A DNA stretch of 64,000 bases from Eledone cirrhosa (taxonomy: Eukaryota), in NCBI GenBank assembly GCA_964016885.1, contig OZ024743.1:238080001-238144000 (forward strand), in the 5' to 3' direction. A program made the position numbers and the translations under genes. The notes under the pieces were generated by a model. It saw only the letters and a list, made by a program, of their open reading frames with translations, searched no databases and was not told where the DNA came from. This document shows positions 27,041 through 53,490 of this stretch, piece after piece; position 1 is the first letter of the stretch; each line of letters starts with the position of its first letter.

Positions 27041-28236
27041 TATGTGAGGTAAAGCCTTTTTTGTTAAAATACAATAGTAAATATAGAGTAATATGAATGC
27101 TAAAGCTTTAATATACTTGTTGTTGAATAAGTCCCTATTGTTTTTGAATAATTACACACAATATTCTATTACCTTTATCTCCTCATCCTCCCTTGGGTGT
27201 GTATATACTTATAAGGTCGATTTGATGGAAATCCGCAACTCTGTTTTGAAAATTAGCCAGTAACATTGTAATATATTCCTCTGTATTTGAATTCGATTTT
27301 TCACGATTGATAATTGAGGATAGCGATTTCAAGATGACAACAAGGTGATGAAACATATGTAAATGGTAGAAATAAATCCTACTGTACCGCTTATCTGTGT
27401 TAATCCTTTTTTTACCTATTATATATGTATATATAATTATATATATATGGAATACTGTTAGCTTCTCGCTACAACAATTTCTATACTTTTCATTTATATA
27501 TATATACTCGGCTTTATTTCCTACAGTGCTTAAATTATTTGTGACTAATCCCGGTATTTAAAAAAAAAAAGACCGCGATAATATTGCTTTTTGCTGAACT
27601 CCTTATTGTAGAGTTTTTTTCGGAATGTTTTTGACTGTTGTTTCATGTAAACAAACATTCGTCTCATTCTGACGTCACCGGCCCTGTTTTTCCACATGTG
27701 CGTTTTATTTTCAACATCACGCATGATGTTAAACTAGCCTGCTTTTAAATTCCCTTTTTGGCATATTAATCATTGAGACCTTGGTTACCATGTTGAGCAC
27801 TGCTGATGAACGAAATCCAACCGTGACCATCCCACTGAAAGTTTTCGTGAAATAGTCTTTTCAAGACTATACAGAGCATTTGAAGTTGTCCCAAATTGAA
27901 GGATGAGTACTTTAGACTTTGCTTTATCATGAGTTAAGGCTCTATTGATTTTTCCATGGATTTCTCTAAATTATGTTGGATAAATCTATATCCTGATTCT
28001 TTTTGAATTGAGTTTGAATTATTTTTACCATATCTTATGTTAACTAGTTTCCCATTTTGACGCTATAGTCACTTATATATTATGGAATACTGTTAGCTTC
28101 TCGCTACAACAATTTCTATACTTTTCATTTATATATATATATATATATATATGATTATTTAATTTATTAATTCTTCATTGAGCCACATCGTGAACGGTTG
28201 CCACATATATATCTGTGACTTTATGTATATGTAAAT

Positions 28237-28315
<79 letters not shown>

Positions 28316-28344
28316 CATATATATATATATATATATATATATAG

Positions 28345-29338
28345 GAATTTAAGACTGGCTGTCCATTGGAACTTCTCTATGCTGACGATCTGGTTGTTAT
28401 AGCAGAATCAGTAGAGGAGCTAGAGAGTAAATTATGGCTATGGAAACAGCAGTTGGAATCAAGAGGACTGAGAGTAAACCTAGCTAAGACAAAAGTCTTG
28501 ATGAGTAGAAAAGAGGACTAAACTCTGACTCCGTCAGGGAAATGGCCATGTTCGATATGCAGAAAATGTACACAGTGCAGATCTTGGGTACACAAGAGAT
28601 GTAGTGGGATAGCAGGCAAACTAACAGGTAAGGAGAAATACGTATGCAGTAGATGTACAGGGAAATTTGACAGTAGAAGTCGCATTGATAGACACATTTT
28701 TCAAATGCAGGCGGGTGCTATAGAAGTGGTTGATAGCTTCCGGTACCTAGCAGATCAGATTAGCATGGGAGGGGGGTGTTCTGAGGCCATAGTATCTATA
28801 ATAAGGACGGGTTAGAAGAAGTTTAGGGAGATGCTTCCTCTGCTGACGAAGAAGGGTTTCTCCCTGCTTATGAAAGGCTGGTTATATGATGCCTGTGTGA
28901 TGAGTACGATGCTGCATGGTAGTGAGACATGGGTAGCAAGTGAAGAGGATATGTGACGGTTGGAGAGAAATGAGGCAAGCATGCTCCATTGGATGTGCAA
29001 TGTCAATCTGCGTGAACGGCCGACCATGGATGTATTGAGAAAGAAACTGTGTCTGAGAGGGATAAATTGTAGTGTGCTGGAGAGGAGACTGCGATGGTAT
29101 GGACATGTGATGCGCATGGAGGATGACCGATGGGTGAAGAAGAGCGAAGAAATGGCAGTTGAAGGAAACGTAGTAGAGGAAGACCATGAAAAATATGGGC
29201 GGAGGTGGTGAGAACAGACCTCAGATTGCTGAAGCTCACGGTGGAGATGACGAAGGACCGTGACAAGTGGAGAGATGCTGTGCTGAAGATGACTCGTCCC
29301 ACCCTTGCAAGCAGGGAAAAGCGGACGTAAAATGATGA

Positions 29339-29389: not shown

Positions 29390-31472
29390 TGCAATCTGGG
29401 TTGCCAGACGAACATAAGGATAGGTTTTATGAGTCCTTAATGCACACTACTGCCTTCACAAGTGTCGAGAAGAAAGCTGTGTGGAAGAGCCATTATGAAA
29501 GTTTACTGAATGAGGAGAATTCATGGGAGAAAGGGACGCTACTCCAAGTGGACCCCATAGAGAGCCAAGCAATACAAGTCAGCAGCAGTGTAGTAAGTAA
29601 GGAAATTAAGGATATGAAGACTGGGAAAGCAACTGGTCCATCGAGTTTAGCTGCCGAGATGCTGAAAGCATCTAGATCGGTAGGTCACACCATAACCATA
29701 CATATTGTTAACCAAGTAATACTAGAGAGCGTCATTACAAATGATTGGCACAGCACCAACATTGTCAACTGCTACAAGGGTAAAGGAGATGCACTAAATA
29801 GAGGAAACTATAGAGGTATAAAGCTGATGGACTAGGTCATGAAAATAACAGAAAGAGTTAGAGCACAGCTGATTAGGGACAGGGTAAATCTTCCTGTGAG
29901 GCAGTTACAGGAAAAGTACCTAGCTAAAAGTAAGCCGCTCTAGCTGGTATTTGTCGATCTGGAAAAAGCCTTCGACAGAGTGCCCAGTGCTATAATCTAG
30001 TAGGCTCTTAGAAAACTAGGAGTAGATGAATGGCTTGTGAAGGCTGTACAAGCCATGTATAGGGGAGCAGTCAGCAAAGTTAGGGTTAACAATGACTATA
30101 GCGAGGAATTTAGCATATAGGTTGGTGTCCAGCAGGGCTCTGTTCTTAGCCCTCTCCTGTTTATTATTGTATTGTAAGCTATAGCAGAGGAGTTTAAGAC
30201 CGGATGTCCAATGGGAATGTCTGTATGTGGATGATCTTATACTTATAGCTGAATCTATCGTGGAACTAGAGAAACAATTTCAAACATGGAAGCAGGACCT
30301 AGAAAGAAAGTATCTCAAAGTCAACCTGACAAAGACTAAGGTCTTTGTAATTAGAAGAGAAAACAGAACCCAGATCCCCTCAGGGAAATGGCCTTGCTGA
30401 GTATGTAGGAAAGGTGTAGGTAGAAATTTCATCCTTTGCCCATATGCAAACAATGGGTACACAAGAGATGTAGTGGGATGTAAGGACGTTTAGCTAAGAA
30501 TGTAAGCTTTACATGTAACAGTTGCACTGGGACAGTAAGCAGTGATTGATCACAAGAAACAAGCACTACCAAATTCTGGGAGGGCTTGGTAGAAACAGTA
30601 GACAGCTTCTGCTACCTAGGTGACAGAATTAGCAGTGAAGGTGGGTATCTGAAAGTACAGTAGCCCGAGTAAGAACGGGATGGAGCAAGTTCAGGGAGTT
30701 ACTACCACTGCAAGCTGCAAAAGGGTTTTCCCTCAAAATGAAAAGCAGACTGTATGATGCATGCATACGAACAGCAATGTTGCATGGTAGTGAAATTGGG
30801 GTGTTGTGCACAAGACTTGTGTAGATTAGAAAGAAATGAAGATTGCATGCTCCGATGGATGTGTAATATATGCGAATGTGTAATATACGCGAATGGCAAA
30901 GCATAAATGAATTAAGAGAGAGACTAGGCATAAGAGGAATCAAATGTTGTGTGCAGGAGAGTAGATTATATTGGTATGGATATATGATGCGTATGAAGGA
31001 TGACAGCTGCATAAAAAGGTGCAGAGCACTAAAAGTCGATGGAAGCCTTGGAGTGGGGTGACCAAGAAGACCTGGGATGAGGTTATAAAAGCTGATCTTG
31101 CCCAATTGCACCTCTTAAATGCAATGACACAGACTGAGTTCTCTGGCGTTACGCAGTAATACAGAGGACCCTACTTCCCATGGGTACAAGCTGAAGCTAA
31201 AGCATATAGACAGTATGCCCCCAGGTGTCATGACAAAAAATCACTCGGTCCACATTGTAAAGTTGTCGTGTAGGTGCCATGTTAAAAGCACCCAGTACCC
31301 ACTGTAAATGAGGTTGATGTTAGGAAGGGCATCCAGCTGTAGAAATCAAGCCAAAATCAGTTCTGTATGAGCAAGACATAGTCACCTGACATGGCATTGC
31401 CCACAACAGGACAATCCGTCTAACCCATGCTAACGCGAAAGAATGGACGTAAAACGGTGATTATTATTATTA
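29390..31472 (+). mobile_element. RTE-clade LINE, degenerate, internally deleted
   Basis: MKTGKATGP, NYRGIKL, FVDLEKAFDRVP and QGSVLSPLLF; 3' UTR module; tail runs into (ATT)n. Confidence 0.88.
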
Positions 31473-31597
31473 TAGTTCAAATCCCGCCGAGGTTAACTTT
31501 GCCTTTCATCCTTACGGGGGTCGATAAAATAAAGTACCAGTAATGTAATGGGTAATTGATGGCCTTGTGCCAAAAGTAGAAACAATTATTATTATTT
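31473..31597 (+). mobile_element. tRNA-derived SINE, 5'-truncated
   Basis: Starts at the B-box; core and GTAGAAACAATTATTATT tail. Confidence 0.88.
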
Positions 31598-31617
31598 TAT
31601 TTGTTGTTATTATTATA

Positions 31618-31811
31618 ATGGATTGGCAGTATCGGTAGAGGTTTGGGCGCCATGCTTTGCAGCATAGAGTTACGCCACTTTATGATCTGAGTTAACCCCC
31701 CCCCCCCCGGTTAACTTTGCCTTTCATCCTTACGGGGTCGATAAAATTAAGTACCAGTAATGCACTGAGATAAATTGCTGGCCTTGTGCCAAAAGTAGAA
31801 ACAATTATTAT
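31618..31811 (+). mobile_element. tRNA-derived SINE
   Basis: A-box, core and AATTATTAT tail abutting the Tx1-like array. Confidence 0.88.
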
Positions 31812-34800
31812 GAGACGGCTGTAACTAAGGCGGAGTAAGTTAGTTAAATTTTTATGAGTTATCGAAAGTTCTATATACTATTTTTTACAACGGTGTGTAG
31901 TTAAAGAACCCCTCATTCAAAGGAGGTGGTTTGTTAACTGTATCTCGCGCCCTTGAGGGCTAAATTTGCATTTATTTACAATCATACCCCCTAAATTTTG
32001 TTTTTAAAAAAAAATCGCGGACAAAAAATGTGTCCACAGGGAGGAACAGCGGGTTGTTCGGATGGTGGAACAGCCGATTCCATCCAATCACAAGGCAAAG
32101 TAAAAAAAGAGGAAAAACAGCAGCAGCAGCGACAGTGGTGGTGACAACAGCAGCAGCAACCACTGGAACAGTAGCAGCAGTAATGGAAATTACAGCGAAA
32201 ACTTCCCTGCGTTAGAAAAATCAAACACCCCCACCACCCCAATAACAACAGCAACAGCCATAATGAACCGAAGCAGCAACAACTATAAAAGCAGCAACAC
32301 AGAGAAAAAAAAAACACTTACGACGGTAACAAAGACAAAACTAGCGATGGGTCAACACAAATCAAAACAAACACATCTTTCGCTAAAGCGACAAACTATT
32401 TTGAACAAGTACACACCACCAATGAAGAGATAAAACAAGCAAAGGTCTTGGTTAAAAAGACCGGACACAGGGTAAGTTTCACCCGCCCAGCTGAGATAAT
32501 AAGAAACAAGCGTTTGTGTTCGGTCGGTTATCGCACGATCGTATAAAAATCGCGGCGATTCGAACAGGCAACGGAACCACAGGTCCAAAGAGCTATGGGT
32601 TCCGTCTGGGCACAGAAAACATACATAGCTTCGGGATCGAGGTATGGCACTGTGGATGTGCTCTTCGCTACACCAGAAGAAGCCAGAGCACACTCCATTG
32701 CGCCACTCCGCAGTGACGAAATCATAATGATGCCTACAAACTGCGGCCAGAGAGTCGTGAAGGTTCGAGTGGCCCAGGTTCTACCCTCAGGGGAGATGGC
32801 GTGGTTGACAGCGGCCGTCCTCGCTGACGTTGAGGATTCAACAACTATACTCAACGTCAAGCGAATAAGAGAGGAAAATTGGACAGGGTCGGAGATGGAG
32901 CTAATCATCCTAGCAAACCATGAGAACATTGAGGCCATCCCCGATGTAATAGACCTGGACGACGGCAGCCATCTACCCGTGACTATCGAAGGTAGGCGCC
33001 CAAGGTGTCATGGATGCGGTGACAAGACGCACCTTAAGGCATTCTGCCTCAAACTCACCAAAACAGACACGCGCCCACCCCTTCTCCCCACGCCGTGCCC
33101 CGCAACTGAAGCGGACAAACAAAGAAAGACCACAATGGCAGAAGAGAAATCACCATCCCCAACAAAAGCACCATCTCATCCACCACCCACAGAACCAATG
33201 GAAAGCATACCCCTTCCTGATATAGCTAAATCAGACAAGGAGTGCGATGAGGCCGAAGAATGGAGGACTATTCCAACAAAATAAAGGAAGAACTCCCTAC
33301 CCTTTCAGGCTAGTGGCCATCTATGCCCCAACAGGAGAAGGACGGCCTGAATTCTTCCGGTGTCTGGAGAACTTTCTTGGAACGTCCCGCTCTTTAGTGT
33401 TAGTGCGCGACTGGAACGGGATCTTAGATGCACGCTGGGATTGTGTGGGATTAGCAGATAGGGGAGGAGGGTGTAAAAGCCTCACAAACCTGCTCAGGCG
33501 TTTTCAGATGTCGGACAGGTACCAATTGGATTTACCGAATGTGCCAATGTGAACTTGGACAAACCGCATCGGGTCATCCAGATCATATCTAGATAGGGTA
33601 TTTTGTAGGGAAATAAATGGTATAGCATAGGCTGTCCACAATTCAAGATAGTTGGCTACACGGATCACAAATTTGTGATCTGTATGGTTGACTTAGATAG
33701 GCTTCATAGACAGGGACCCGGCTACTGGAAACTAAACGCGTCGTTAACAGCGTGCAAAGGTTACAGAGACCGGATTAGCAAATTGGTTAAGCGGGCATTG
33801 ACATGGGCCATCGTCAACAACAAATGGTGGTTTGCCCTGAAAAGAGCGATTAGAATAGAGTCCATTAGGTTTAGTAAAGCGCTAGTAACAGAGAAAAATA
33901 GAGCTGAAGGAAATCTAGTTAGCAAATTAGACGAGGCGCTTAGTAAAGGCATCGCGACCGACGTGCTTGCGCCGAAATTGGCTCTCGACCCATTTTTCAA
34001 CGCTAAGGACGAAGGATACGTTGCCAGAGCTAGAGTGCGTGCTCTCAGACACGAGCGGACGAAAGCCGTTCAATGGGCCCGGGTGGCGAAGGGCGTCGTG
34101 GCAACAAAGCCACGATCCGGTCTTTGGCGAACAACGACGGGCGCATGATACTCGATCCCGGCAGATGTGTGCGGCTTTTCAGCAGCACTTTGCTCAGGTG
34201 TTCGGGGGCAATGGCGGGCCGCATCGCGGAATGGACTTCAGTGCCTACCTCCACGGACTGCCGAGGTTCTCGGTCACTGAGGCGGAGTGACATCTGCTCT
34301 GTGGTGAGAGTGAACGGTCACCTTTCGGAACCGTTCAACATCATGCACTCGATCCACCAAGGATGTCCTCTCTCGTCCTTGTACGTATTAACTCTCGAGC
34401 CATTACTGCACAAACTGAAGACGCTGAGCGGTGATACCGCTTGAACCAGGATGCGGAAGAACAGTGTCAGCTTATGCAGGCAACATCACCGTAGTGGTGT
34501 CGAACGCCAAACACATCGAGGAAATCGACACCACACTAAGAGACTACGAGGTAGTGACAGGAGCAATGATCAACCAGGAAAAATCAGTAGGCTTGCAACT
34601 CGGCACCTGGGGAGGCAGGTGCAAGCCGTCCAACAGCGTTGCCCGTCACTGGACGGATGGACCGGTTAAATTGTTAGGGGTCCGGACCTAAATACGGACA
34701 AAAACTGAGAGGAGGTCACGAATAAGGTGATTTCTCTCACCCAGAAATGGGCCGAGGGGAAGCTATCTCTGAAAGGTCGAGCGGAGGTGGCGAATGCATA

Positions 34801-36044
34801 CATCGCGTCTGTCATCTACTACCGCCTGACCGTCGTGCCTTGTCCTAAGCCTAGCCTAACTGCACTGGAGAGTTTGCTCTTTCGCTTTTTGTGGAAAGGA
34901 CGCGCTCCGATTGTCAGGCGTTCCATCTGCTGTCAACACCCGCTACGCAGAGGGCTGGGCATGCTGCGGCTGTGGATGCGCAGACATGCGCTCAGGCTAC
35001 GACATCTCCACCTCTTCCTCGGCGGTGATCAGGTGTGGTCGCCCTTTGCTAGACACATGTTTCCCCAGCTTGTCTCCTTGGCGGAGCTGCAATCCTGGGT
35101 CAAGCAAAAACCGAGAGGCAGCGCTTGGAAACTGGAATGTCTTCAGGCGCTTACAGCCATGACCAGTGGAGCAATACAATCGATGGAAACTCCACCTTGG
35201 CGTTCTATAGAGGATTAGTGGAGGGAAAATGGCAACGACGTCCTTGGGGAGACTCTAGGCGTCGATGAAAACCAACTAGCCAATCTCTTTGGGAGAACAT
35301 TTGGGCCGGGGCCCATGGACAACTTCCAGAAATCCCTGGCCTGGCAATGCTACTGAGGAGCCTTGCCAGTTTGGGATAAACTCTACAGGCATGGAAGTGC
35401 CGTCAGCCGGGTTGTCTGAGATGAAACCCTCCCGCACGCACTCGTCCAGTGTCCGAGCATTGCTGACTTGTGGGTTTATGCCGAACACCTGCTGTCAGAT
35501 GTAGAACGGATCCGGCTATCACCTGAGTTCATCGTGAAAATTGCCCCGCCGTCTTTCTTTAGCCGAGAAGGGCAGGCAGTTTTTATTTGCCTGGTGGACA
35601 CCTCTGAAAGGGTTGAAGACGGGTACTTTCCTCTTCGGTGACGCCCTCATTAACTTTTTAAAGTTTCACCTGAAGAGTAAAATCAGGGTGGATAGGGAAG
35701 TGCTGACTTCCAGCCAGTTTGTTGAAAGGTGGGTGAGAGAGGCAAGAATGGCCTGTGTGAATAGGTCTACCCTGAGCGTGTGCCTGTAGCATTGTAGGAG
35801 GAAAACTGGAAGAGGGCATTTGCCCTAGCGGTCAGGGTAACCGTGGCTTTTTTTGTGGGCTTTCTCCACGAGCAACCCTCGGAGGTGTCCCCCCTATTGG
35901 GAATTTTTCATTGTTTCCTTTTGTCACACTCTGTTTTTGTTTTTTATTACATGCAGAAATGCCTATTTGTATTGTCCTGTGTTGTCCTTAATGTTATACT
36001 TTGTGTCAACCCTTGTGGTTAATAAAGAAAGCATTATTATTATT
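31812..36044 (+). mobile_element. Tx1-like non-LTR retrotransposon, copy 1 (two internal deletions)
   Basis: ORF1 32595-33284 with zinc knuckle CHGCGDKTHLKAFC; partial APE (YAPTG, DWNGILD, GYWKLN); partial RT (QGCPLS, YAGN); ends CCCTTGTGGTTAATAAAGAAAGC(ATT)n. Confidence 0.9.
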
Positions 36045-39000
36045 GGTCTGTTTGGAGGTCTTTTTTTCTCGCTCCCAGTAAGTCGTTTTATTTACCTGTT
36101 ATATTATTTGTTGTTAAATTGTTCTTGTTGTGTAGGGAAATAAGCCCTTGGACTTTACCCTGTGAAGGGGAAAGTATGATATTTGGGCCTTTTGGCCCAA
36201 ATATTTTAACAATATTTGAACATTTTACTTTTGAAAATAAAAAAAAATGAAAACATGGCTGAGCCATGCCCCCCCCCCCCCCCCCCCCCAGCAATATCTC
36301 TGCTGTCGTGTGACAACGGCGTAAAAGTTGAGAGGAGGGTTAGTGAAATTCATACAACAAACACCACAAACAACGTGAACAAAGACAACAACACTGAGAA
36401 CACTAAATTAAAAAAAATTACCACACTAACTACAACAATAACAGCGTTAACAATAATACAGACAACAGAAAAAAATGACAACAAATGCAACAACGATATT
36501 AACACCACTAACAAGAAAATAAACAACAACACCAACAACAACAATACAAATTGCACCGAAAACAACAACAATGGTGGCACCAAAAACACAACCAACTACA
36601 ACAGTGATAACAGCAACAACACCAACAACACCGTTTGTAGCAACAGCAACAGCACCAACAACAAGACCAGTAGCAGCAGTAGCGGCAGCAATAATGTTGC
36701 CGCTGAAAAAGGGGTCACTTCTTTCGCAGGTGTGGCCCGAAATATAGAGACAGTGCTAGACACGGAGGAGGAGATGGCAGTCACAAGAGCCATGGTGACA
36801 AGGAATGAATATAGAGTTTCCCTGAAACCTCCACCCGATTTCTTCAAAGACGAGCAGAGCAGCTGAGCACACTGACTTACTGCACCGTAAGCAAGATGTC
36901 ACATCAGGTGGAGAGAGCCATGGAGGCTCAAATCCAAAAGGCTTGGGGTATGTCTGGGCGCCAAAAACCCACATCACCCGAGGCAAAAAATACGCCACAG
37001 TAGACGTACATTTCGCCACCCGCCAAGAGGCGAAGTCTCACTCTTTGGAAACTCTAAAGAGTGAGGAGATGCTAATACAGACTGACCAGGAGTACACCGA
37101 GGCCATCCCAGATATCATAGACTTCGAAGAAGGACTCCAGCTCCCTATAAGCGTGGAGGGAAGGCGCCCAAAGTGCTTTCTCTGTGGGCAGAAGGGTCAC
37201 CTCAGGGCCTTCTGCCCGCAGAAGACAGCCAAGAAGAGGGCCCCTCCTTCCGACGCCGGATCCGCTGCTACCAAGAGCAGGGCAGGCAACAGAGGCAGAA
37301 GACCCTTCCATGGTAAATAGGAGGCCAACGCTCGTGGCCCCATACCAAGGCCACGGACAACTAAAGCAGCGGCAGCTGGCGGCAACACCAACAGTAGCAG
37401 TAGCCACACCGGCAGCGAAATCGCCGGAGCGGGCTCCACTACCACCACCAACAGCAGTGGAGCTCATACCCCTCCCAGACCCACGGAATCCGATATGGAG
37501 TATGAGGCAGGAGGGAAGTAGCAAATGGTGTGCCACAAAAAAAAAAAAATCCCTTAGCTTCACCCTCCAAAAGCGAAGGCAAACGAAGAGGGGTAAAAGC
37601 TGCAAGGAGACTTGCAGCAACACCACTACCATCACCATCACCATCACCACCACAAGCATCACCACCAACAACAACCACGCCACCACCAGCATCACCAAAA
37701 ACACCAACATCGCAAACACAACAAAACACACACACCCAACAGCAACAAGAAAACAGTAACAAAATCACCCCTTCCCTCAAAAAAGTACACAGCCATAAAC
37801 ATGGCAAATAAAGAACTCTTACAACATATAAAGCAGCACACAGACATCACAGAAAAAAACTACTACAGCCCATCAACACCAAGAACTCTCCCGACAAACA
37901 TAAACATCATTGAAATCAAAATAGAACATTACAAACTTTTAAAACAAAAATTCCCCAAATCAGTTGGAGACTCCAGAGGGTCGGTTACCAAGACGATATA
38001 CACCGACATCCTCTTGGAAACACCCATGACCAGCCAAAGGGATGGTTCTACTGTCCCTTCGCCACAAGATCAAGGTAAGTGATCCTTTCTCACTTAGCCT
38101 GTTTCTCATCCAACATGGCCGTACTTAGAATAGGCAGTATAAAAGTACGTGGCCTGGGGTAATCTTGGAAGCAGGGTGACCTGCTCAACGACCTCAGGTC
38201 ACTAAACATAGATCTGGTGGCCATCAGTGAGACCAGAATCTCCGAAGCACGAGCCTTCGCACCGATCTTCGGCGGCTACGATGTATACGCATCTCCCAGC
38301 CGTCCAGGATCGGGGGGAGGGCTTGCCGTGCTTTTTCGGAGAGGCTTGGATCTTCCTGGACTCAGAAGGTAATTCGGTGGTGCTGGACGTGACCGGCAGC
38401 GAAGGCAATGCTTTCAGGTTAGTAGCCGTCTACGCCCCCATAGGGGCAGGACGGACAGATTTCTTCAGACGTCTAGAGACCTTTCTTGGAAGGTCCCGCT
38501 CTTTAGAGTTAGTGGGCGACTGGAACGGTATCTTAGATGCACGCTGGGATTATGTGGGGCTAGTAGACAGGGCAGGAGGGTGTAAAAGCCTCAACAACCT
38601 GCTCAGACGTTTCGAACTGTCTGACAGGTATAGGCTGGATTATCTGAATGTGCTAATGTGGACATGGGCAAAACAGATCGGGTCATCCAGATCGTATTTA
38701 GATAGGGTATTCTGTAGGGAAACAGATAAGACTAGTGTAGGTTGTCCACAATTTAAAGTAGTCGACTACACGGACCACAAATTTGTGATCTGTGAAGTTG
38801 ACTTAGATAGACTCCATAGGCAATGGCCCAGCTGCTGGAAGCTGAACGCGCCGTTCCCGGCGCGCAAAGCTTACAGAGACCGGATTAGCGAATTAGTTAA
38901 GCGTGCGTTGACGGGTGCGATCGTCAACAACAGGTGGTGGTTTACCCTGAAAAGGGCTATTAGACTAGAATCGATAAGGTTTAGCAAAGGAGTAGTGATA

Positions 39001-41765: not shown

Positions 41766-44700
41766 CAACAATAAGAGCATCAGAAACACCACATTTGCTG
41801 CAGCAGCAGCAAAAACAAAGCGCTTATTGAATATTGATATTGATATTAGCGATAAAGACGAACAGTTGGCCAAAGCGTGGAGGCTAATTAAACGGGAGAA
41901 GTCCTGGGCAAACCTGACCATCCCGGACGAGGCAATAGCGGTCATGCAAAGGAGGACGGTGCTCTTTCGATGTATTTCGGTGCAGACACGAAAAGTGGAA
42001 CTTGCGAGCCAAGCAGAGGTAGAGGCTGCTTTGGAGTTCACCGGAAGTAACATAGAGTACAAAGCAAGAGGCAAACAGTTCGGTACCATCTCGGTACTGT
42101 TCAAAACCGAGGCCCTCGCTATTAAGCACTCGGTGACCCCCTGCAGAACGGAACGCATTATCATGCATCCGTCCTATATGGGTAAAAGGACAGTGAAGGT
42201 ACGCATTCCCAACATCCCACCAGGAATGAACATATGGTGGCTACTGGGATGCGTAATCGAGGAGGGGACAGACACTGCCCTCCTAGACATCAAAAGGACA
42301 GAGAGAGAGGACTGGTCCGGAATGGATTTGGAGATTCTTCTCCAAATGAAACCGGAAGATATGAATAACATCCCGGATTTTGCCCGCCTGCAGGATGGGA
42401 CAACAATCCAACTAATGATTGACGGAAGAAGGCCACGCTGCTTCGTCTGCGGGGAAGCAACGCATCTTCAAGCCTTCTGCCCTCAGCGCAAAAATGCAGG
42501 GGGTCGCAAACCTCCTTTGTTGCCAACGCCAGTGTCATCACGGAAAGCTGCACCACCACTACCACCAACATCAACATCAACAAAAACACGGACACCAACA
42601 TCAAAAGCAGCCGGATCACCACCAACACCAAAACCAATCCAAGGAGAAAACGAGGAAAGCTCTCCCACTCCCCCTACCCCCCAATTATACACATAGACAA
42701 AACAATAAACGCACACACAAACACAGAGACACTCACAGACACAGACCCGTTGTCTTCCAGCAGCGAAGATGAAGGAAAACCCAAAAGTGCAAAAAAACAG
42801 AGAAAACAGACAAAAACAAAAGGCCCAACAAAATACAAAAACACACACAACAAAAAATACAGACACCACTAACGCAAACACTTCCCCAATAACATCATCA
42901 CCAACAGCAACATCGACACCGCCTCCACAATCCCCGAAACGCAAACAACCTAAACAAACACAAGTACAAATAAACACACAAATACCTGAAATTGCAGACA
43001 CCACACCTACAACAAACATAGACATACCCGAAACAACACCACCAAAACCATCGCCACCACCTTCACCAAAACGAAAACAAATAAAACCACACCAACAAAA
43101 TGTTAAAAACTACGTGCTTGTCAGAAGGGCCAACGATAAACTGATGGCCCTCTTAGCGCGAAGCGAGGACATTCAAACAGAGGGGGAGATTTTTGAAATG
43201 AGCACATTTTGCGTGCCAGAAGATTTGCTTCTGGTCCGAATGTCACTCAATTCCTTCAAAGAAATTCGAGAGAGCTTTCCTCAAGACGTGGGAACTCCGA
43301 ATGTGAAACCCACATCAAGACTTTTAAAGGGGTTCCCAAAAGAAACCCCACCAACCATGGAGGTCGAACCACCCGACCTTCACAAGACCCGGGAGGTAAG
43401 TAAACCTTCCCTCTCTCTCTCTCTTAGCTTACCAATATGGCCATATTAAGAGTAGGCAGTTTAAATGTTCGCGGCCTGGGGTCACCCTGGAAGCAGGGTC
43501 GCTTGCTCAACGACCTCCGGTCGCTAGAAATGGATGTGATTGCCGTAAGCGAGACCAGAATTTCCGACACGCGCGCACTAGCCCCCATTTTCGACGACTA
43601 TCAGACCTTCGCATCTGTTAGCAGGCCGGGAATGGGGGGTGGGGTGGCAGTGCTGTTTAGGAAAGGACTGGATCTCGAGGTAAGGTCGATCTTCCGGGAC
43701 CCGGACGGTAAGTTGGTGGTCTTGGATGTGAGCAGTAGCGAAGGTGGTGCCTTTAGACTGCTGGCCGTCTACGCCCCTACAGGGGCCGGACGACCTGACT
43801 TCTTTAGGCGCCTGGAGACCTTTCTGGGTACGTCTCGCCCTTTACTGTTAGCGGGGGACTGGAATGGCAGGGATTGTGTGGGAGTAGCCGATAGGAGCGG
43901 GGGGTGCAAAAGCCTCAAGCACCTACTCAGCCAGTTCCAACTGTCTGACAGGTATCGACTAGATTTCGCCAATGTGCCAGTATGGACATGGACCAACCGA
44001 ATGGGGTCATCTAGATCGTATATAGACAGGATCTTCATTAGAAAAATAGATAGAAATAGTGTGGGCTGTCCACTTTTTAAAACGGTCGCCTATTCAGACC
44101 ACAAATTTGTGATCTGTACGGTCGACCTAAATAAAACGCGTAGGTTAGGACCGGGTTACTGGAAGCTGAACAGGTCAATTCCGGCACGTAAGGCTTACAG
44201 GGACCGAGTCAACAAGTTAGTTAAGCAAAAGTTGACAGGGGTAATCATCAACAACAGATGGTAGGGGGCTCTCAAAAGAGAGATTAGAGTAACTTCGATA
44301 GAGTTCAGCAAAGAACTAGCGTTAGAGAAAAATAGAAAGCAGGGGGAGTTGGTAGATAAGTTAGACGAGGCTATTTGTAGTGGCATCGCAACTGACGTGC
44401 TAGCGGCGAGAATGGCATTAGACCATTTTTTCAATGCCAAACATGAAGGTTGCATTGTCAGAGCTAAGGCGCGTGCGCTGAGAAACGAGGGAACTAAAGC
44501 TGTTCGATGGGCCCGCGTGGCGGAGGCGCAGCGTGGTAATAAAACCACAATTCGGTCTTTGGCGGACCGAAACGGACACGAGATAAGCGATTCCAAGCGG
44601 ATGTGTGAGGCCTTTCGCCAACACTTTGCTCGGTTGTTCAGGGAGAGTGGCGAGTCAGAGAGAGTAGCGGATTTCAGTCCCTACCTTGACAGCTTGCCGC

Positions 44701-47114
44701 GCATCTCGACGGTCGACGCTGAGCGCTGCGAAAGGCCGATTACTTCAGCCGAAATTCAGGACGCCCTTGTCGGCTGCATGAGGCGCAAGTCACCCGGTTT
44801 GGATGGCCTGCCCTACGAGCTTTACGTAAATATGCCAGACTTGTTCTCCGAACTCCTCGAAGCACTCTACTGCAACTGGCAGCAGAATGGGAGTATTCCC
44901 AGTTCTGTGAGCAGGTGAGTGGTGACGCTGATAAGGAAAGACGAGAACAAGAGGGATACATTAGACAACTTCAGGCCCATAACTCTGCTCAACACAGAGT
45001 TTAAGATTTTGGCCAAGGTGTTAGCAAAGAGATAGGCGCTTGTCGTCGAGGATTTGGTTGGGGAGGCGCAAACTTGCGCAATCCCAGCCAGGTCCATACA
45101 CAACAATCTCCACCTCATGCGATACATCATAGAGAGAGTAGGGTGTAAACCTGGCTTCGGTGGGGCACTGATCAATTTAGATCAATCGAAAGCATTCGAT
45201 AGGGTCGATCATCGGTACCTGGAGTTTGTCCTCAAAGCAGCTGGCTTCGGCCCTGTCTTTAGAAGCTGGATCGTTGCAATGCACAGCGGCACACGCTCGC
45301 TGGTCAAGGTTAATGGCCACCTCTCGGAACCATTTCGGCTCTCCCGATCGGTCCGTCAAGGGTTCCCTCTCTCTTCCCTTCTGTACGTATTGACTCTCGA
45401 GCCTTTACTGCGGAAGCTGGAGCTGTTGCAGGGCATCCCGCTCGAACCGGGACGTGGAAAGGCGGTGTCGGCTTATGCGGCCGACATCACCGTGATGGTG
45501 TCGAACACCTCAGAAATCGAGGTGGTCGGCACCTTATTGAAGGAATATGAAAGGTTGACAGGAGCCAAACTTAACCCGGAAAAGTCGGTGGGCTTGCAGC
45601 TCGGAACCTGGAGAGGCAAGCCCATGCCGTCCAACAGCGTCGTGGGGCGCTGGACGGACGGACCGGTAAAGTTGCTCGGAGTTTGGTTCGGACCTGACCT
45701 CCAGGTGAAAAAGAATTGGGACGAGGTAACGAGCAGAGTAGCCAGTCTCACCCAAAAATGGGCTGGGAGGAAGCTATCACTGAAAGGTCGCGCGGAGGTG
45801 GCGAATGCGTACATCGCGTCCGTCATCTACTACCGCCTAACCGTCGTGCCTTGCCCCCGTCCGCGCCTCGTCAAGTTGGAACGGCTCCTCTTCAAATTCT
45901 TGTGGAGGGGACAAGTTCCGTTGGTGAGGCGGTCCATCTGCTGCCAGCACCCTCTACGCGGAGGGCTGGGCATGCCGTGGCTAATGATGCGCAGACATGC
46001 GTTGAGGCTGCGACATCTCCAGATATTCTGCCTCAATGGTGAACAGGTGTGGTCGCCGTTTATCAGACGGGCCTTTCCGCAGCTCATTTCTTTGACTGAG
46101 CTGCAGTCCTGGGTCAAGAAGAGACCGAGACTGGGTGACTGGCACCTGGAATGTTGCCAGGCTCTCACTGCCCTCTACCAAGCTGGCAATGCAATCAGTG
46201 GAACTTCCACTCTCGAGTTCTATAGAGGATTCGTGGTGGGCAAGTGCGATGACGCACTCGGAGAAGCTTTGGGCCTCGACGAAGTCGAACTGACCAGTCT
46301 GTACCGGAGGACTTTTGAGCCGGGGACGATGGACAATTTCCAGAAATCCCTCGCTTGGCAGTGCTACCGGGAGGCACTGCCGGTTCGGGATAAACTCTAC
46401 AGGCACGGAAGTGCTGTCAGACGGACCTGCCCAAGATGCGCACAGAACGACGAAACCGTTCTGCACGCACTTGTCCAATGTCCGTGCATTACTGACTTGT
46501 GGAGTTATGACGAACAGCTACTGTCGCGTGTGGAACGAATCCGGCTATCGAGCCGCCACCTTCCTTAGGTCAGGAAGAGCAGGAAATTTTCCTCTGTCTG
46601 GTGGCAGTTGCGAAAGAGATTATATGGTGGACCAGGTTGAAAGGACTAAAGACAGACACTTTTCTCTTCGGCCAATCCCTCTTCAACTTCTTCAAGTTTC
46701 ACCTGGAAAGGAGGGTGAGGGTGGAGAGAGAAGTGCTTCCCCCCAATACATTTGCTAAAAGGTGGGTGAATGTGGCGAGAATGGTTCGTGTGAATGGGCC
46801 TGCTCTGACCATGCGCCTATAGGCTGGCTAACTTGAGGAGAGGGGTGCTCTCCTGGGTGCCCTAGAAGCGCAGGGTGGTTCAGGATTGGTGGGGTACCCG
46901 AATCACCCCAGGGTCGTCCACCCCTATCGGGGAATTTATTTTGTTGTATTTATGCATAGTTTATTTTATATTTTTATATTTTCATTGTTAAATTAATCTT
47001 GCCATTGTGCACTTTTACTCGACCTTATTGTAAACCCCCACTATCCCTGTCTTTGTATTGTCCCCTACATGTCGGCCCTTGTGGCTAATAAATGAAATCA
47101 TTATTATTATTATT
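41766..47114 (+). mobile_element. Tx1-like retrotransposon, copy 3 (most divergent, 5'-truncated)
   Basis: ORF1 41827-43449 (CFVCGEATHLQAFC); ORF2 43437-46822 (SLNVRGL, SETR, GDWN, SDH; QGFPLS, YAAD; CCHC finger) with stops; (ATT)n tail. Confidence 0.92.
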
Positions 47115-50100
47115 GAATGCTATGGTTGACGGAGGCTCGGCTCTGTAAATTTTGACCGCTATAACAATTGTAAATTGTTTAAAACTTTAACCAACTTGTA
47201 GACAAAAACACCCTCCTCCTTGTGAGAGGGGTCTTTCTGCCCGTTATTTGGCCCTTCGGGGTTATATAACCGCCTATTGGGGTTTTGTGCCCAATATTTA
47301 TTTTAAACAAAAAAACAACATGGCTACGAAAAAGAATTTTCATAGGTCACTCCCACTCATTCCGTCTTCTTCTTCCTCAATCGTCACTACAGCAGAGAGA
47401 AGATTGTCTCTCTCCCTCCCCTCTCTAAATGTGTCTCTCTCCCTCCCTTCTCTTTCGCAAGCGACGCCAGAAAAGAAAAATCACGTGCAAAGCGAGCAAG
47501 ATTTCTCCACGACGACGACGACAACGACGAAACAGGTGTGCGGGAAATACGAAAACCCATTTCATTCGTCTGACGTCAGGAATAATAGCAGTAGCAGCCG
47601 TAATAACAGCAGCAACAGTGACAAGGAAAACAACAGTAGCAGCCGCAACAGCATCAGCAGCAGCATAAACAACAACAGCATTAGCAGCAACAACAACAGC
47701 AGCAGCAGCAACAACAACAACAACCACAGCAACAGCGGCGGGGGCAGTAGTCGTAGTACCTGCAGCAACAACAAAAGTAACAGCAGCTCTGACGACAACA
47801 ACAACAACAACAGCAGCAAAGAAAAACCAATCTCGTTTGCAGGTATCGCAAAGAACCTGGAAACCATCCTCATAACAAATGAGGAATTAGAGGAAGCGAA
47901 GAAGATGGTGACAAAAACTGGACACCGAGCAATCTGCAAGGCAGCGGAAAATTTTTTCGAAACCCAACAGCACTGTACGGTCACGTACCGTACAGTAAGT
48001 ACAAAATCCCGTAGGGTTGAAAGAGCCACAGAAGCTCAAATACAAAAAGCCTGGGGGTCTGTGTGGCAGCGGAAAACGCACATCACCCGAGGCAAGAAAT
48101 ATGCCACAGTAGACGTACTTTTTGCCACACCCCAGGAGGCAAAGGCTCAATCCTTAGTGACCCTAAGGAGCGAGGAAATAGTGTTGGTGCCCTCCTACTG
48201 GGGGCAAAAAATTGTGATGGTCAAACTGACCCCCCCCCCCCCCCCGATGGGCCATTCTTGGCTGGCCGCGTCTGTCCTCGTCGGAATCGAGGACAAAACA
48301 ACTGTACTGCAAGTACAGAAAAAAGTAAGAGAAGTTTGGGTCGGCACCTCCATTGAGATGTTAATCCAAACCAACCAGGAGTGCATCGAAGCTATCCCGG
48401 ATGTGATAGACTTCGATAACGGCACTCAACTGCCCATAAGTGTTGAGGGCAAACGCCCGAAATGCTTTCGCTGTGGATCGAAGACTCACCTCAGGGCCTT
48501 CTGCAACGAGAAGACCCTGAGAAAGGAGAAAACCCCCCTCCTTCCGAAACCGGCTCCACGGCTCCAGCAACAGGACAAGCGGCAACCAGGAACGATAGGT
48601 CCGTGGCACCCATACCCACGCCACGGAAATCAAAAACAGCAGCAGCAGTGGAAGGATTAACAACAACAACAACAGCAATACCAAATGCAGCTGCAACAGA
48701 GACTCCAGGGCAAACATCACCAACAACAACAAGTGAAAGTGTGGAGCTGGTACCCCTCCCCGACCTCACAGAATCAGACATGGAGTGTGAGGTGGGAGAG
48801 GGATGGCAAAAGGTCGTAAGAAGGCACAAACGCAGAAGCAGCGCATCGTCGCCTTCGAAAAGGGAGGAAAGAAATGAAAAAAGGGTAAAGGCTACTGCAA
48901 AGAGACTCACAGCAGCAACACCACCAACACCATCACCACCCACACTAGCACCACCATCACCACCGGCGACAACCCTACCGCCAACAACACCTTCAACACC
49001 ACCACCACAAGCACCAACATCGCAAACACAACAACAAAACACACACACCCAGCAACAACGACAAGAAAATAGCAGAACCACACCCCTCCCCCAGAAAAAC
49101 AATGCACGGCAATAAATACACACAACAAGAAACTAGTGACTTACATAATTGAACACACAGACATTTCACAACACGACTACATAATACCAGCACCAATCAA
49201 AACGCCAACTAACATAAGACTGCTAAAAATAGCACAGAAACAATACACAAACATTAAAACGAAATTCCCCAACGCAGTTGGTGATTTCAGAGACCTAGGA
49301 GGGACCCTCAACCGAAGAGTATATTGGGACATACTCATAGAAGAGCCGACGGCCAGCCGAAGGGACGATTCAACGGTCCCTTCACCAGACGATCAAGTGA
49401 AAAGGGATGGAAAAACCATCCCTCCTCTACGAAAAGTACGGTAAGTGGTCTTTCCCATCTTTTCCACTCTATTTTAAACATGACCTCACTCAGAATAGGC
49501 AGCATAAATGCGCGTGGCTTGGGGTCGTCATGGAAGCAGGGTCACCTGCTCAACGACCTCAGGTCACTAAACATAGATGTAGTGGCCATCAGCGAGACCA
49601 GAATCTCCGAAGCACGGGCCTTCGCACCGATCTTCGGCGGCTACGAAGTGTACGCATCTCCCAGCCGTCCTGGATCAGGGGAGGAGTTGCTGTGCTTTTT
49701 CAGAGAAGTTTGGATCTCGCCATACCGGCCATCTTCCTGGACCCAGAGGGTAAGTTGGTGGTGCTGGACGTGACCAGCGGAGACGTGCAAGCTTTCAGGC
49801 TAGTGGCCGTCTATGCCCGACAGGAGCAGGACGGCCTGATTTCTTCCGGCGTCTGGAGACCTTTCTTGGAACGTCCCGCTCTTTAGTGTTAGTGGGCGAC
49901 TGGAACGAGATCTTAGATGCACGCTGGGACTGTGTGGGATTAGCAGATAGGGGTGGAGGGTGCAAGAGCTTCACCAACCTGCTCAGGCGTTTTGAACTGT
50001 CTGACAGGCACCGATTGGATTTCCCGAATGTGCCAATGTGGACTTGGACAAATCGCATAGGGTCATCCAGATAATATCTAGATAGAGTATTTTGTAGGGA

Positions 50101-53100
50101 AATAGATAGGTCTAGCATAGGCTGTCCACAATTCAAGATAGTCAGCTACAGGGACCACAAATTCGTGATCTGTGTGCTTGACTTAGATAGGCTTCATAGA
50201 CGATACCCGGCTACTGGAAGCTAAACGCGTCCTTACCAGCGCGCAAGGCCTACAGAGACCGGATTAGCGAACTAGTTAAGCGGGCGTTGACGGGGGACAT
50301 CGTCAACAACAAGTGGTGGTTTGCTCTGAAAAGAGCAATTAGAATAGAATCGATTAGGTTCAGTAAGGCTTTAGCAATAGAGAAAAATAGAGCAGAGGGA
50401 GAACTAGTTAGAAAATTAAAACGAGGCGCTTAGCAAAGGCATTGCGACCGACGTGCTTGCGGCGAAATTGGCCCTTGACCAATTCTTCAATGCAAAGCAC
50501 GAAGGCTGCGTTGTCAGAGCTAGGGTGCGTGCTCTCAGACACGAGGGGACGAAAGCCGTTCAATGGGTCCGAGTGGCGGAGGAGCGTCGTGGCAACAAAG
50601 CCACGATCCGGTCTTTGGTGGACCACGACGGGCGCATGCTACTCGATCCCGGGCAAATGTGTGAAGCTTTTCAGCGATACTTCGCTCAGCTGTTCGGGGG
50701 CAGTGGTGGACAGGGTCGAGGGATGGACTTTAGTGTCTACTTCGACGGACTGCCACGGCTCTCGGCCACTGAGGCGGAGTGTTGCGAAAAGCCGATAACA
50801 GCCGCTGAAGTAAGGGAGGCAATGACTGGCTGCACAAGGGGTAAATCGCCTGGTTTGGATGGTCTGCCATATGAACTTTACGTACAGATGCCAGACTTGT
50901 TCGGAGGCCTCTTGGCGGACGTCTACTGCAACTGGCAACAGAACGGGAGTATTCCCAGTTCTGTGAGCCGAGGAGCGGTGGCACTGCTGAGAAAGGATCC
51001 GAACAAGGGGGATAACATAGATAATTTCCGGCCCATAACTCTGCTAAACACAGAGTTCAAGATTTTGGCCAAGGTGCTAGCAAAGAGGTTGGCGCTTGTC
51101 GTTGGTGGTCTGGTGAGAGAGGCGCAGACATGCGCCATTCCCGACAGATCCATCCACGACAACCTCCACCTCATGCGATACATCGTAGAGAGGGTAGCTA
51201 GGGAACATGGCACGGGTGGGTCCTTGATCAATTTAGATCAGTCGAAAGCTTTCGATAGGGTAGACCATCGTTACCTAGCGGCAGGCCTGAGGGCGGCTGG
51301 ATTTGGGCCCGTCTTCAGAGGTTGGATCGCTGCCATGCACAGCGACATTTGCTCTGTGGTGAGAGTGAACGGTCACCTTTCGGAAGCGTTCAAGATCATG
51401 CGCTCGGTCCGCCAAGGATGTCCTCTCTCGTCCCTCTTGTACGTATTGACTCTCGAGCCATTACTGCACAAACTAGAGACGTTGAGGGGCGTCCCGCGCG
51501 AACTAGGATGCGGAAGATCCGTGTCAGCATATGCGGACGATGTCACCGTAGTGGTGTCGAACGCCAAACACATCGAGGCGATCGGCACTACACTAAGAGA
51601 ATACGAAGCGGTGACAGGAGCAATGATCAACCAGGAAAAGTCAGTGGGCCTGCAGCTCGGCACCTGGAGAGGCAGGTCCATGCCGTCCAACAGCGTCGTT
51701 GGACGCTGGACGGACGGACCGGTTAAATTGCTAGGGGTCTGGTTCGGTCCGGACCTCCAGACGGACAAAAACTGGGACGAGGTGACGAGCAGGGTGGCTT
51801 CTCTCACCCAGAAATGGGCGGAGAGGAAGCTATCCCTGAAAGATCGAGCGGAGGTGGCTAACACGTACATCGCGTCTGTCATCTGTTACCGCCTGACCGT
51901 CGTACCTTGTCCTAAGCCCCGCCTGACTGCGCTGGAGCGTTTGCTCTTTCGCTTTTTGTGGAAGGGACGCGCTCCGATGGTCAGGCGGTCCATCTGCTGT
52001 CAACACCCGCTACGTGGAGGGCTGGGAATGCCGTGGCTGATGATGCGCAGACACGCGCTCAGGCTACGACATCTCCACCTCTTCCTCGACGGTGATCAGG
52101 TGTGGTCGCCGTTTGCTAGACACGTATTTCCCCAGCTCGTTTCCTTGACGGAGTTGCAGTCCTGGGTCAAGCGAAGACCGAGAGGGAGCGCCTGGAGACT
52201 GGAATGTCTTCAGGCGCTCACAGCCCTCGACCAATCGGGAAATGTGATCGGTGGAAACTCCACCTCGGCGTTCTATAGAGGATTAGTGGAGGGGAAGAGC
52301 GACGACGTACTTGGGGAAACTCTAGGCGTCGACGAAAATCAACTAGCCAATCTCTTCGGAAGAACTTTCGGGCCAGGGCCTATGGACAACTTCCAGAAAT
52401 CTCTGGCCTGGCAGTGCTACCGAGGAGCCTTGCCAGTTCGGGATAAACTCTACAGGCATGGAGGTGCCGTCAGCCGGGCATGTCCGAGATGCGCGCAGGG
52501 CGACGAAACCGTCCTGCACGCACTCGTCCAGTGTCCGAAAATTGCTGACTTTGGGTTTATATCGAACACCTGCTGTCGCGTGTAGGACGGATCCGGCTAT
52601 CATCTGAGTCCATCGTGAGGATTACTCCGCCCTCCTCCTTTAGCCGGGAAGGGCAGGCAGTTTTTATCTGTCTGGTGGCCATGGCGAAAGAGATAGTATG
52701 GTGGACACGTTTGAAAGGGCTGAAGACGAGCACTTACCTCTTCGGTGATGCCCTGATTGCCTTTTTCAAATTTCATTTGAAAAGGAAAATCAGAGTAGAG
52801 AGGGAAGTGCTCTCTTCCCAGCATTTTGTTGAAAGATGGGTGAGAGAAGCAAGAATGGCCCGAGTGAATGGGCCTACTCTGAGTATATATCTGTAAATTA
52901 AAGGTGGAAAACTGGGAGAGGGCACTTGCCTTGGTGGTCAGGGTCACTGTGGCCTTTTACTGGGCTTTCTCCACAAATGTCCCTCCGAAGTCTCCCCTCT
53001 ATTGGGGAATTTTTCATTGTTATTTTTTGTTACATCCTCTGTTTTTGTTTTTTACACGCCCATTTGTACCGTATTGTATTGTCCTGCACTGTCCTTAATG

Positions 53101-53136
53101 TCTACTTTATGTAAACCCTTGTGGTTAAAAAAGAAA

Positions 53137-53170
<34 letters not shown>
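47115..53170 (+). mobile_element. Tx1-like retrotransposon, copy 4 (best preserved)
   Basis: ORF1 ~47320-49444 (S/N-rich, CFRCGSKTHLRAFC); ORF2 49480-52896 with a 710-aa open stretch (QGCPLS, YADD, CPRCAQGDETVLHALVQCP); frameshifts in APE; longest (ATT)n tail. Confidence 0.93.
50453..52585 (+). CDS. Reverse transcriptase + zinc-finger portion of Tx1-like ORF2
   Basis: Open 710-aa frame with non-LTR RT motifs including SAYADDV; part of a frameshifted ORF2. Confidence 0.85.
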   Translation: MLAAKLALDQFFNAKHEGCVVRARVRALRHEGTKAVQWVRVAEERRGNKATIRSLVDHDGRMLLDPGQMCEAFQRYFAQLFGGSGGQGRGMDFSVYFDGLPRLSATEAECCEKPITAAEVREAMTGCTRGKSPGLDGLPYELYVQMPDLFGGLLADVYCNWQQNGSIPSSVSRGAVALLRKDPNKGDNIDNFRPITLLNTEFKILAKVLAKRLALVVGGLVREAQTCAIPDRSIHDNLHLMRYIVERVAREHGTGGSLINLDQSKAFDRVDHRYLAAGLRAAGFGPVFRGWIAAMHSDICSVVRVNGHLSEAFKIMRSVRQGCPLSSLLYVLTLEPLLHKLETLRGVPRELGCGRSVSAYADDVTVVVSNAKHIEAIGTTLREYEAVTGAMINQEKSVGLQLGTWRGRSMPSNSVVGRWTDGPVKLLGVWFGPDLQTDKNWDEVTSRVASLTQKWAERKLSLKDRAEVANTYIASVICYRLTVVPCPKPRLTALERLLFRFLWKGRAPMVRRSICCQHPLRGGLGMPWLMMRRHALRLRHLHLFLDGDQVWSPFARHVFPQLVSLTELQSWVKRRPRGSAWRLECLQALTALDQSGNVIGGNSTSAFYRGLVEGKSDDVLGETLGVDENQLANLFGRTFGPGPMDNFQKSLAWQCYRGALPVRDKLYRHGGAVSRACPRCAQGDETVLHALVQCPKIADFGFISNTCCRV

Positions 53171-53457: not shown

Positions 53458-53490
<33 letters not shown>

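Follow-up and report, generated by a model that had tools for sequence, protein, structure and literature searches.

Co-oriented L1-type LINEs and a partner SINE seated at (ATT)n repeats in the genome of Eledone cirrhosa

The stretch of DNA analysed here (the window) comprises 64,000 nucleotides of the genome of Eledone cirrhosa (assembly GCA_964016885.1, contig OZ024743.1, positions 238,080,001 to 238,144,000 of the forward strand). At 31474-53170 it holds two copies of a short interspersed nuclear element (SINE1 and SINE2) and four copies of L1-type long interspersed nuclear elements (LINEs; E1 to E4), all on the + strand and joined to one another through runs of ATT. We give a probability of roughly 0.85 to the following reading of this array: L1-type LINE families and their partner SINE insert at ATT repeats, and the tails of inserted copies become the next landing sites, by which trains of elements are built stepwise.

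ATT repeats at the 5' ends of LINE copies

The genome (3.0 Gb) was searched with ATT-free queries, namely the 5'-terminal 216-224 nt of E4, E2 and E1, and the flanks were read at the 30 best loci of each of the three families, a 5' end being counted as placed at ATT when it abuts an ATT-phase repeat of at least 6 nt with a gap of at most 3 nt. By this measure 84 of the 90 ends lie at an ATT run (30/30 in the E4 family, 28/30 in the E2 family and 26/30 in the E1 family), and in the six misses an ATT run is found 8-20 nt upstream. The register is constant inside each family (…ATTATT/GAATGC, …ATTATT/GGTCTG and …ATTAT/GAGACGG, the slash marking the junction). As a control, an ATT-type hexamer precedes 0.87% of 116,550 other positions in the flanks of the sampled loci; in the window, for 36,988 positions that do not belong to the array, the figure is 0.41%. 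Directly upstream of the 5' end, the 3' end of another element is present in 52 of the 90 copies (26 LINE and 26 SINE), with LINE ends, SINE ends and no recognised element numbering 16, 1 and 13 in the E4 family, 5, 14 and 11 in the E2 family, and 5, 11 and 14 in the E1 family; the 38 full-length copies without a recognised upstream element nevertheless stand at ATT runs. A first-pass annotation of this DNA had proposed an (ATT)n-specific lineage whose own tail recreates its target, and both the ATT flanks in these genome-wide samples of copies, set against less than 1% of control positions, and the frequency of LINE or SINE 3' ends upstream bear this out.

The neighbours that are joined in this way largely share one direction. 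Within the 10 kb upstream of 16 E4-family copies, picked for a preceding LINE tail, 61,141 bp of LINE-like DNA are co-oriented with the copy and 1,969 bp are opposite (97% co-oriented), contrary to a random orientation. Chains of two to seven co-oriented elements are found at other loci, as in L131, where a LINE tail is followed by two full-length LINEs, or in L134, where five SINEs are followed by two LINEs, and more trains are present at L133, L136, L138, L140, L142 and L143. The array of the window is a large but typical train.

A negative control is provided by the LINE 3' fragment that lies immediately upstream of the array, in which only reverse transcriptase (RT) fragments are recognisable (Pfam) and which the first-pass annotation had labelled RTE, a clade of short elements with one open reading frame that holds an apurinic/apyrimidinic endonuclease and RT. 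Its family has (GAT)n ends in 22 of 30 copies and GAT followed by ATT in 5 of 30 (two paralogue groups, the window's among them), and none of 25 5'-truncation points in this family is flanked by ATT, ordinary target-site duplications (TSDs) being visible, so ATT flanks are no general property of retroelements here. The window copy ends in a single GAT unit before ATT, and the first ATT run is therefore not its tail. The earlier idea that an RTE element takes part in the chain through an ATT tail of its own thus falls, because the family tail is (GAT)n and the insertion sites are ordinary, and this RTE-like element was rejected as a chain member. One or two GAT units of this (GAT)n-tailed LINE stand before an ATT run, or before an ATT-targeting element, at L150, L153, L155 and window positions 31457-31473 (three independent loci), and such tails may be a near-cognate insertion site that is rarely used.

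The findings above bear on the simplest alternative, namely that there is no targeting and that ATT-tailed LINEs pile up in AT-rich or tolerant regions by chance or selection. ATT or TAA tails do occur on non-specific LINEs, for example the I element (in the part of PMC3747384 that deals with tails), but the 84/90 ends at ATT in a family-constant register, the 0/25 of the (GAT)n-tailed neighbour family and the 97% co-orientation of LINE-like DNA in chains leave such an account with almost no credibility.

Some further observations concern the repeats themselves. Compound (CTT)n(ATT)n runs are found 5' of several copies (L005, L009, L066 and L100), and the tail of one E4-family copy (L018) is a long (CTT)n after a single ATT. 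Another repeat family, with the 5' end ...TCTCAGTCATTGATGTT..., stands directly after ATT runs at six loci (L008, L014, L022, L025, L153 and L155) and may be a further ATT-targeting element.

Target-site duplications, shared 3' hairpin and proposed mechanism

The position of the insertion site can be followed in copies that lack a complete 5' end and in the SINE. Among 13 5'-truncated copies of the E4 family, 4 abut ATT, 3 carry TSDs that open with ATT and extend into unique DNA, 1 lies 13 nt downstream of a SINE tail, 3 have no clear ATT and 2 are rearranged, ATT being found at the junction or at most 13 nt from it in 8 of the 13; the visible TSDs include ATTATTCCTA, ATTATTATTAC and ATTATGTACAT. 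Among the 100 SINE copies with an intact 3' end within the DNA of the collected loci, 46 have 9 nt or more of their 5' flank repeated directly in the tail region. This repeat starts with ATTAT, directly after the SINE body, in 38 of the 46, and it extends into unique sequence in 27 (for example ATTATTTGTAAAATCATAA), the other 19 being pure ATT.

Following the logic of target-primed reverse transcription, as established for L1, the ATTAT start of the TSDs of SINEs and truncated LINEs would place the first nick just 5' of ATTATT, as read on the sense strand of the element. In the mechanism that we propose, the bottom strand would be nicked at the 3' end of AATAAT, the exposed end would pair with the (AUU)n tail of the RNA, and reverse transcription of this tail would be primed at the nick, while the top strand would be cut 9-21 nt downstream. 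An element landing in a tail would have to share the direction of its host, because its direction with respect to the strand of the repeat is set by pairing. A short ATTAT(T) at the site of nicking is enough for SINEs and truncated LINEs, and the specificity is therefore that of a short motif, which is supplied in bulk by ATT tails; a long microsatellite may not be required.

The SINE is about 190 bp long, non-coding and repeated, with TSDs and a LINE-like 3' end. A tRNA scan of the SINEs and the whole array with ARAGORN gave 0 genes and an Rfam scan of the same sequences gave 0 matches, so that no tRNA-derived head was recognised; strings resembling the consensus of Box A and Box B were noticed in the SINE by eye only. 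The last ~50 nt were aligned for eight sequences, the four LINEs and four copies of the SINE, with 22 invariant columns, and RNAalifold predicts for them one hairpin of 4 bp that has CUUGU as its loop and stands about 12 nt ahead of the tail, in which three of the four pairs are changed on both sides. Extending the comparison to 96 distinct LINE and SINE 3' ends from all loci, 82% of the cells pair, against 66% in shuffled sets, and changes on both sides affect 57 cells, against 24 in the shuffles, with 0 of 500 shuffles reaching the observed value in either case. Hairpins slid along the alignment as controls pair in 18-50%, and the stems differ by family (AACC/GGUU, GGCC/GGCC, GCC/GGC and UGGC/GCCA). 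The hairpin is likely a template-recognition signal letting the SINE use the LINE machinery: the ORF2 protein (ORF2p; ORF, open reading frame) would choose its template through the hairpin located ~12 nt before the tail, and the SINE would thereby be served in trans.

The array of the window and its LINEs

The long elements have the architecture of L1-group LINEs, an assignment made because they combine an apurinic/apyrimidinic endonuclease (APE), RVT_1 and zf-RVT with a separate ORF1 and with collinearity to L1 ORF2p. Copies in the window match Exo_endo_phos (E=9e-15), RVT_1 (up to E=3e-29) and zf-RVT in Pfam. All three domains are recovered from the two pieces of ORF2 in a better-preserved genomic relative of E4 (L146), in which Exo_endo_phos and RVT_1 stand together on one ORF of 657 aa, and a C-terminal zf-RVT is found in this relative (with a CPRC...H...C string) and in E2, E3 and E4. 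The first 657 aa of the L146 ORF2 are collinear with residues 8-664 of human L1 ORF2p (E=1e-33), whereas R2 proteins match it in the RT only (E=2e-12). An ORF1 precedes ORF2, as an ORF of 597 aa in L146 and as remains in E1-E4. The closest named homologues are unannotated proteins of an argonaut (70%), a cuttlefish (46%) and a sea turtle (37-38%), and the nearest protein-atlas cluster is labelled 'LINE-1 ORF2 family'. Members of the Dong/R4 clade have a single ORF with a C-terminal restriction-like endonuclease and no APE; a Dong/R4 identity was ruled out, as the elements have an APE domain and two ORFs.

The first-pass annotation had called the four LINEs Tx1-like, a label that is putative here: they share target-specific insertion with that clade, and the architecture shown is that of L1-type elements. 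In E2, the ORF1 match to zf-CCHC is sub-threshold (E=0.0016, 18.9 bits against a cut-off of 20.8); in the E4-family ORF1, a CX2CX4HX4C string was looked for and none was found. The 597-aa ORF1 of L146 has no significant Pfam family, with one sub-threshold MBD match (E=0.012), and a search of the PDB with ORF1 gave no relative. ORF1 of the Tx1 clade has RRM and CCHC knuckles (in the section of PMC5203782 on this clade), and two papers on octopus repeats name 'L1-Tx1' families, with no targeting mentioned in the parts concerned.

The four LINEs are not copies of one another. E1 and E4 are 83-88% identical in DNA, E2 and E4 76.7%, and E3 is 71-75% identical to the others. The ORF1s of E1, E2 and E3 show 34-40% identity to the E4-family ORF1, with short patches of 70-74% in E2, while the ORF2 pieces of the same three copies mostly reach 62-96% identity to the E4-family protein, and the 5' untranslated regions (UTRs) differ among the four. 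The damage is also unlike: E1 has suffered two internal deletions, with the loss of approximately the first 105 ORF2 codons and of ~560 bp inside the RT (34272/34286), E2 and E4 carry frameshifts, and E3 is 5'-truncated inside ORF1 and has in-frame stops. That these are distinct subfamilies rather than products of tandem duplication, as had been suggested from the sequence at the outset, is therefore upheld by the low mutual identity, the divergent ORF1s and the different damage. Array parts do recur upstream at 95-97% identity (see below), and co-oriented homologous elements invite unequal exchange, but with LINEs of 71-88% mutual identity, ORF1s at 34-40% and different 5' UTRs, the array was copied, not created, by duplication, and an origin of the array by tandem or segmental duplication or by unequal crossing-over is highly improbable.

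Parts of the array are found again on this contig, at distances of 186 kb and 381 kb upstream, in blocks of 95-97% identity with differing internal composition (contig positions 237920001-237960000, L121-L124, and 237725001-237765000, L125-L128). In one paralogue (P1) the series LINE fragment-SINE1-SINE2-E1-E2 is preserved with 95-97% identity, and the sequence beyond it is different. The other (P2) reads LINE fragment-ATT-SINE2-E1, without SINE1 (L148), and contains, further on, E4 preceded by the 3' part of E3, with 95-96% identity. Such differences suggest a segmental duplication followed by further insertions or by unequal exchange between co-oriented elements. Homology to both paralogues (L124 and L128) resumes at window positions 53462-53490, exactly at an (ACT)n run, and the sequence after this run may be a further repeat seated at a microsatellite.

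The presence or absence of SINE1 at an ATT run is as predicted by sequential insertion. In the order that we propose, E1 would have inserted into an ATT run and SINE2 into the ATT-like leader of E1; SINE1 would have entered the upstream run after the split from one paralogue, and E2, E3 and E4 would each have inserted into the tail ahead. SINE2 likely landed in the leader of E1, because ATTTGTTGTTATTATTAT precedes it and ATTATTAT is found on both its flanks. The closest relatives of E4 are 93-97% identical to it and those of E1 and E2 (paralogues aside) 87-93%, a divergence that fits different insertion times.

The array might instead be made of one-event chimeras, the RT switching, at the 5' end of an element RNA, to the (AUU)n 3' end of a second one, and the whole train being integrated once. 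Clean ATT runs at the junctions, with no unique TSD between elements, are what this would leave, and single junctions are compatible with it by element structure alone. SINE1, however, is missing in one paralogue, the members of the array differ in apparent age, 38 of 90 full-length copies lie at ATT runs with no recognised element upstream, and SINEs and truncated LINEs have ATT-starting TSDs of their own, so that we regard chimeras as improbable. A misjoining of repeats at ATT runs during assembly, which would make the order of the array unreal, is considered a little less probable still: short-read contigs of four public runs end at an ATT junction, 47100-47114 being spanned by no listed piece, but like junctions are present at dozens of other loci and P1 keeps the order from the LINE fragment to E2. 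Contigs of two runs labelled as other organisms match parts of the E3 3' end and of the E4 5' region at 90% or more, and related LINE families may exist in related species.

Several points weigh against stepwise insertion at ATT repeats, or against the strength of the figures given for it. A first look yielded 133-1630 candidates, of which 40 hits were scored for each family and the 30 with the highest scores were used; the sample is one of young copies near the window's own rather than a random one, and each set contains the copy of the window, three paralogues also being present. At full-length 5' ends, some of the ATT may derive from the RNA itself: an ATT-like leader is clear in the E1 family, where the imperfect string ATTTGTTGTTATTATTAT stands just before the first base in ~20 of 30 copies and looks like an inherited 5' leader. 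Of 20 SINE copies sampled with less bias, only 5 have ATT directly at the 5' junction, which TSDs of 9-21 nt that start with ATT and run into unique DNA would predict. Full-length LINEs stand next to pure ATT in 93% of cases, and 41% (19/46) of SINE TSDs consist of pure ATT, a difference for which either an ATT-like RNA leader aiding 5' joining or a preference of LINE particles for long runs may account. As to the hairpin, the 96 sequences belong to a few families, and independent compensatory events are therefore few; one of the four pairs is, moreover, fixed by the motif used for collection. The site of the nick is deduced from sequence. Lastly, a comparison of the three arrays on this contig, which differ in complex ways, revealed no empty site for E1, E2, E3 or E4; SINE1 alone could be cleanly scored as present in some and absent from another.

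The features of the array are collected in Table 1. The first-pass annotation had described seven co-oriented elements with ATT at every junction; this stands for the two SINEs, the four LINEs and all the junctions, and not for the RTE. The shortest junction, between E2 and E3, is ATTATTA only, and three of the ATT junctions were scored by Tandem Repeats Finder. The G+C content is 0.46-0.54 between 32 and 52 kb, compared with 0.28-0.42 around. C homopolymers of 13-21 nt occur at 31700-31712 (SINE2), 36269-36289 (5' UTR of E2) and 48230-48245 (ORF1 of E4). Further upstream, a second RT fragment (RVT_1, E=5e-7) followed by a weak PHD-like zinc-finger match at 28345-28815 represents another LINE fragment, and a unit of ~140 bp (28205-28343 in the window, 2671-3587 in L135 and many loci) is widespread and forms short tandem arrays elsewhere.

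Table 1. Elements, ATT runs and coding remains at window positions 29889-53170 (the ATT runs at junctions are from sequence reading).
Feature	Position	Strand	Description	Basis
LINE 3' fragment	29889-31459	+	(GAT)n-tailed family; chain neighbour, not member; RT fragment 30185-30400	Pfam RVT_1, E=8e-6
ATT run	31460-31473	+	from LINE fragment to SINE1; in P2 continues without SINE1	reading
SINE1	31474-31596	+	5'-truncated; hairpin 31560-31572; ATT tail 31585-31596	89% identity to SINE2, tail motif
Remnant TTATTTGTTGTTATTATTATA	31597-31617	+	resembles E1-family 5' leader; SINE2 lies between remnant and E1	
SINE2	31618-31811	+	full-length; hairpin 31779-31791; tail ATTATTAT at 31804-31811	
E1	31812-36044	+	L1-type LINE, family-typical 5' end; hairpin 36008-36020; tail 36033-36044	
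E1 ORF1	32313-33272	+	coding remains	
E1 ORF2	33304-35786	+	coding remains	
E2	36045-41765	+	L1-type LINE, family-typical 5' end; hairpin 41734-41746; tail 41759-41765	
E2 ORF1	36720-37548	+	coding remains; weak CCHC match	
E2 ORF2	38115-41507	+	coding remains; frameshifts	
E3	41766-47114	+	L1-type LINE, 5'-truncated inside ORF1; hairpin 47074-47086; tail 47100-47114	
E3 ORF1	41857-42570	+	coding remains, part	
E3 ORF2	43437-46819	+	coding remains; APE match in ORF 43428-44264	
E4	47115-53170	+	L1-type LINE, family-typical 5' end; hairpin 53114-53126; tail (ATT)10.7 at 53139-53170	
E4 ORF1	47320-49112	+	coding remains	
E4 ORF2	49480-52893	+	coding remains; frameshifts	

Significance and comparison with known systems

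The LINEs described here are a new (ATT)n-targeting member of the microsatellite-targeting L1/Tx1-type APE LINEs, in which they are classed by their L1-type architecture, with a partner SINE and a self-renewing target. With them, (ATT)n can be added to the few simple repeats that are known as targets of APE-type LINEs. In the full-text literature searched, neither an (ATT)n-targeting Tx1 or L1 element nor any such targeting in the cephalopod lineage was found; Repbase Reports, Kojima and Fujiwara 2004 and Ohshima and Okada 1994 lie outside this scope and may bear on the novelty. ATT-joined co-oriented trains provide a simple rule for a repeat-rich genome, which aids repeat annotation and the checking of assemblies and accounts for where ATT microsatellites are born. 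Since LINEs, SINE and a (GAT)n-tailed family are present in one genome, they also constitute a natural system in which the endonuclease can be set against the pairing of tail and target.

A broader reading, which we consider possible but rather doubtful, is that at least four LINE families and the SINEs form a guild, in which the hairpin would pick the template and the (AUU)n tail, not the endonuclease, would pick the target by pairing. If this were true, target choice would be programmable by tail sequence, and ATT tails would act as safe-haven landing pads, a sizeable share of the repeat growth of the genome taking place through long trains.

One parallel is human L1 with Alu, where the nick is at TTTT/AA, the tail is poly(A) and insertions occur into older tails. 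The two systems have in common a tail complementary to the nicked target, TSDs that start with the tail motif, old tails as hot spots, a SINE riding in trans and an ORF2 collinear with L1 ORF2p. They differ in the tail and target, which consist of a trinucleotide repeat here and of a homopolymer in L1, and in the conserved 3' hairpin common to LINE and SINE, which suggests a stringent choice of template.

Dong, of the R4 clade, stands apart in architecture, since the elements studied here have an N-terminal APE and a zf-RVT C-terminus. It is alike in its target, (TAA)n being the same trinucleotide repeat read on the other strand (as given in the part of PMC3812793 on Dong). A further parallel is the pair formed by Tx1-Mar and SINEU-3 in crocodilians, where the SINE shares the target of its presumed partner and tandem sequential insertions are found; that target is a Mariner transposon and not the element's own tail, and it is therefore not self-renewing (according to the passages of PMC4494074 on these elements).

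UnaL2, which forms a stringent LINE-SINE pair, belongs to a different clade from the elements described here. Its retrotransposition requires a stem-loop, and it is not known to be target-specific. The 3' stem-loop and the short repeat tail, TGTAA in UnaL2, are each common to LINE and SINE in both cases, and (ATT)n tails are themselves known on RandI elements and SINEs of a green alga (both in the relevant parts of PMC3747384).

The nearest systems are the Tx1-clade families that target simple repeats, namely Kibi at (TC)n, Koshi at (TTC)n and crocodilian families at (TTCC)n or (TTTC)n, next to which ACAY and AC repeats (Waldo and Mino) and (TAA)n (Dong) are recorded as targets (in the portions of PMC4494074 and PMC3812793 on target repeats). 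Like Kibi, Koshi and the crocodilian Tx1 elements, those of Eledone cirrhosa are APE-type LINEs of the L1 group with ORF1 and ORF2, the insertion of which is tied to one simple repeat, and their 84/90 far exceeds the criterion for targeting (20% of flanks) that is set out in the corresponding part of PMC4494074. They are unlike the Tx1 elements treated in those portions in their (ATT)n target, in their cephalopod host and in that a short ATTAT(T) is enough for SINEs and truncated copies.

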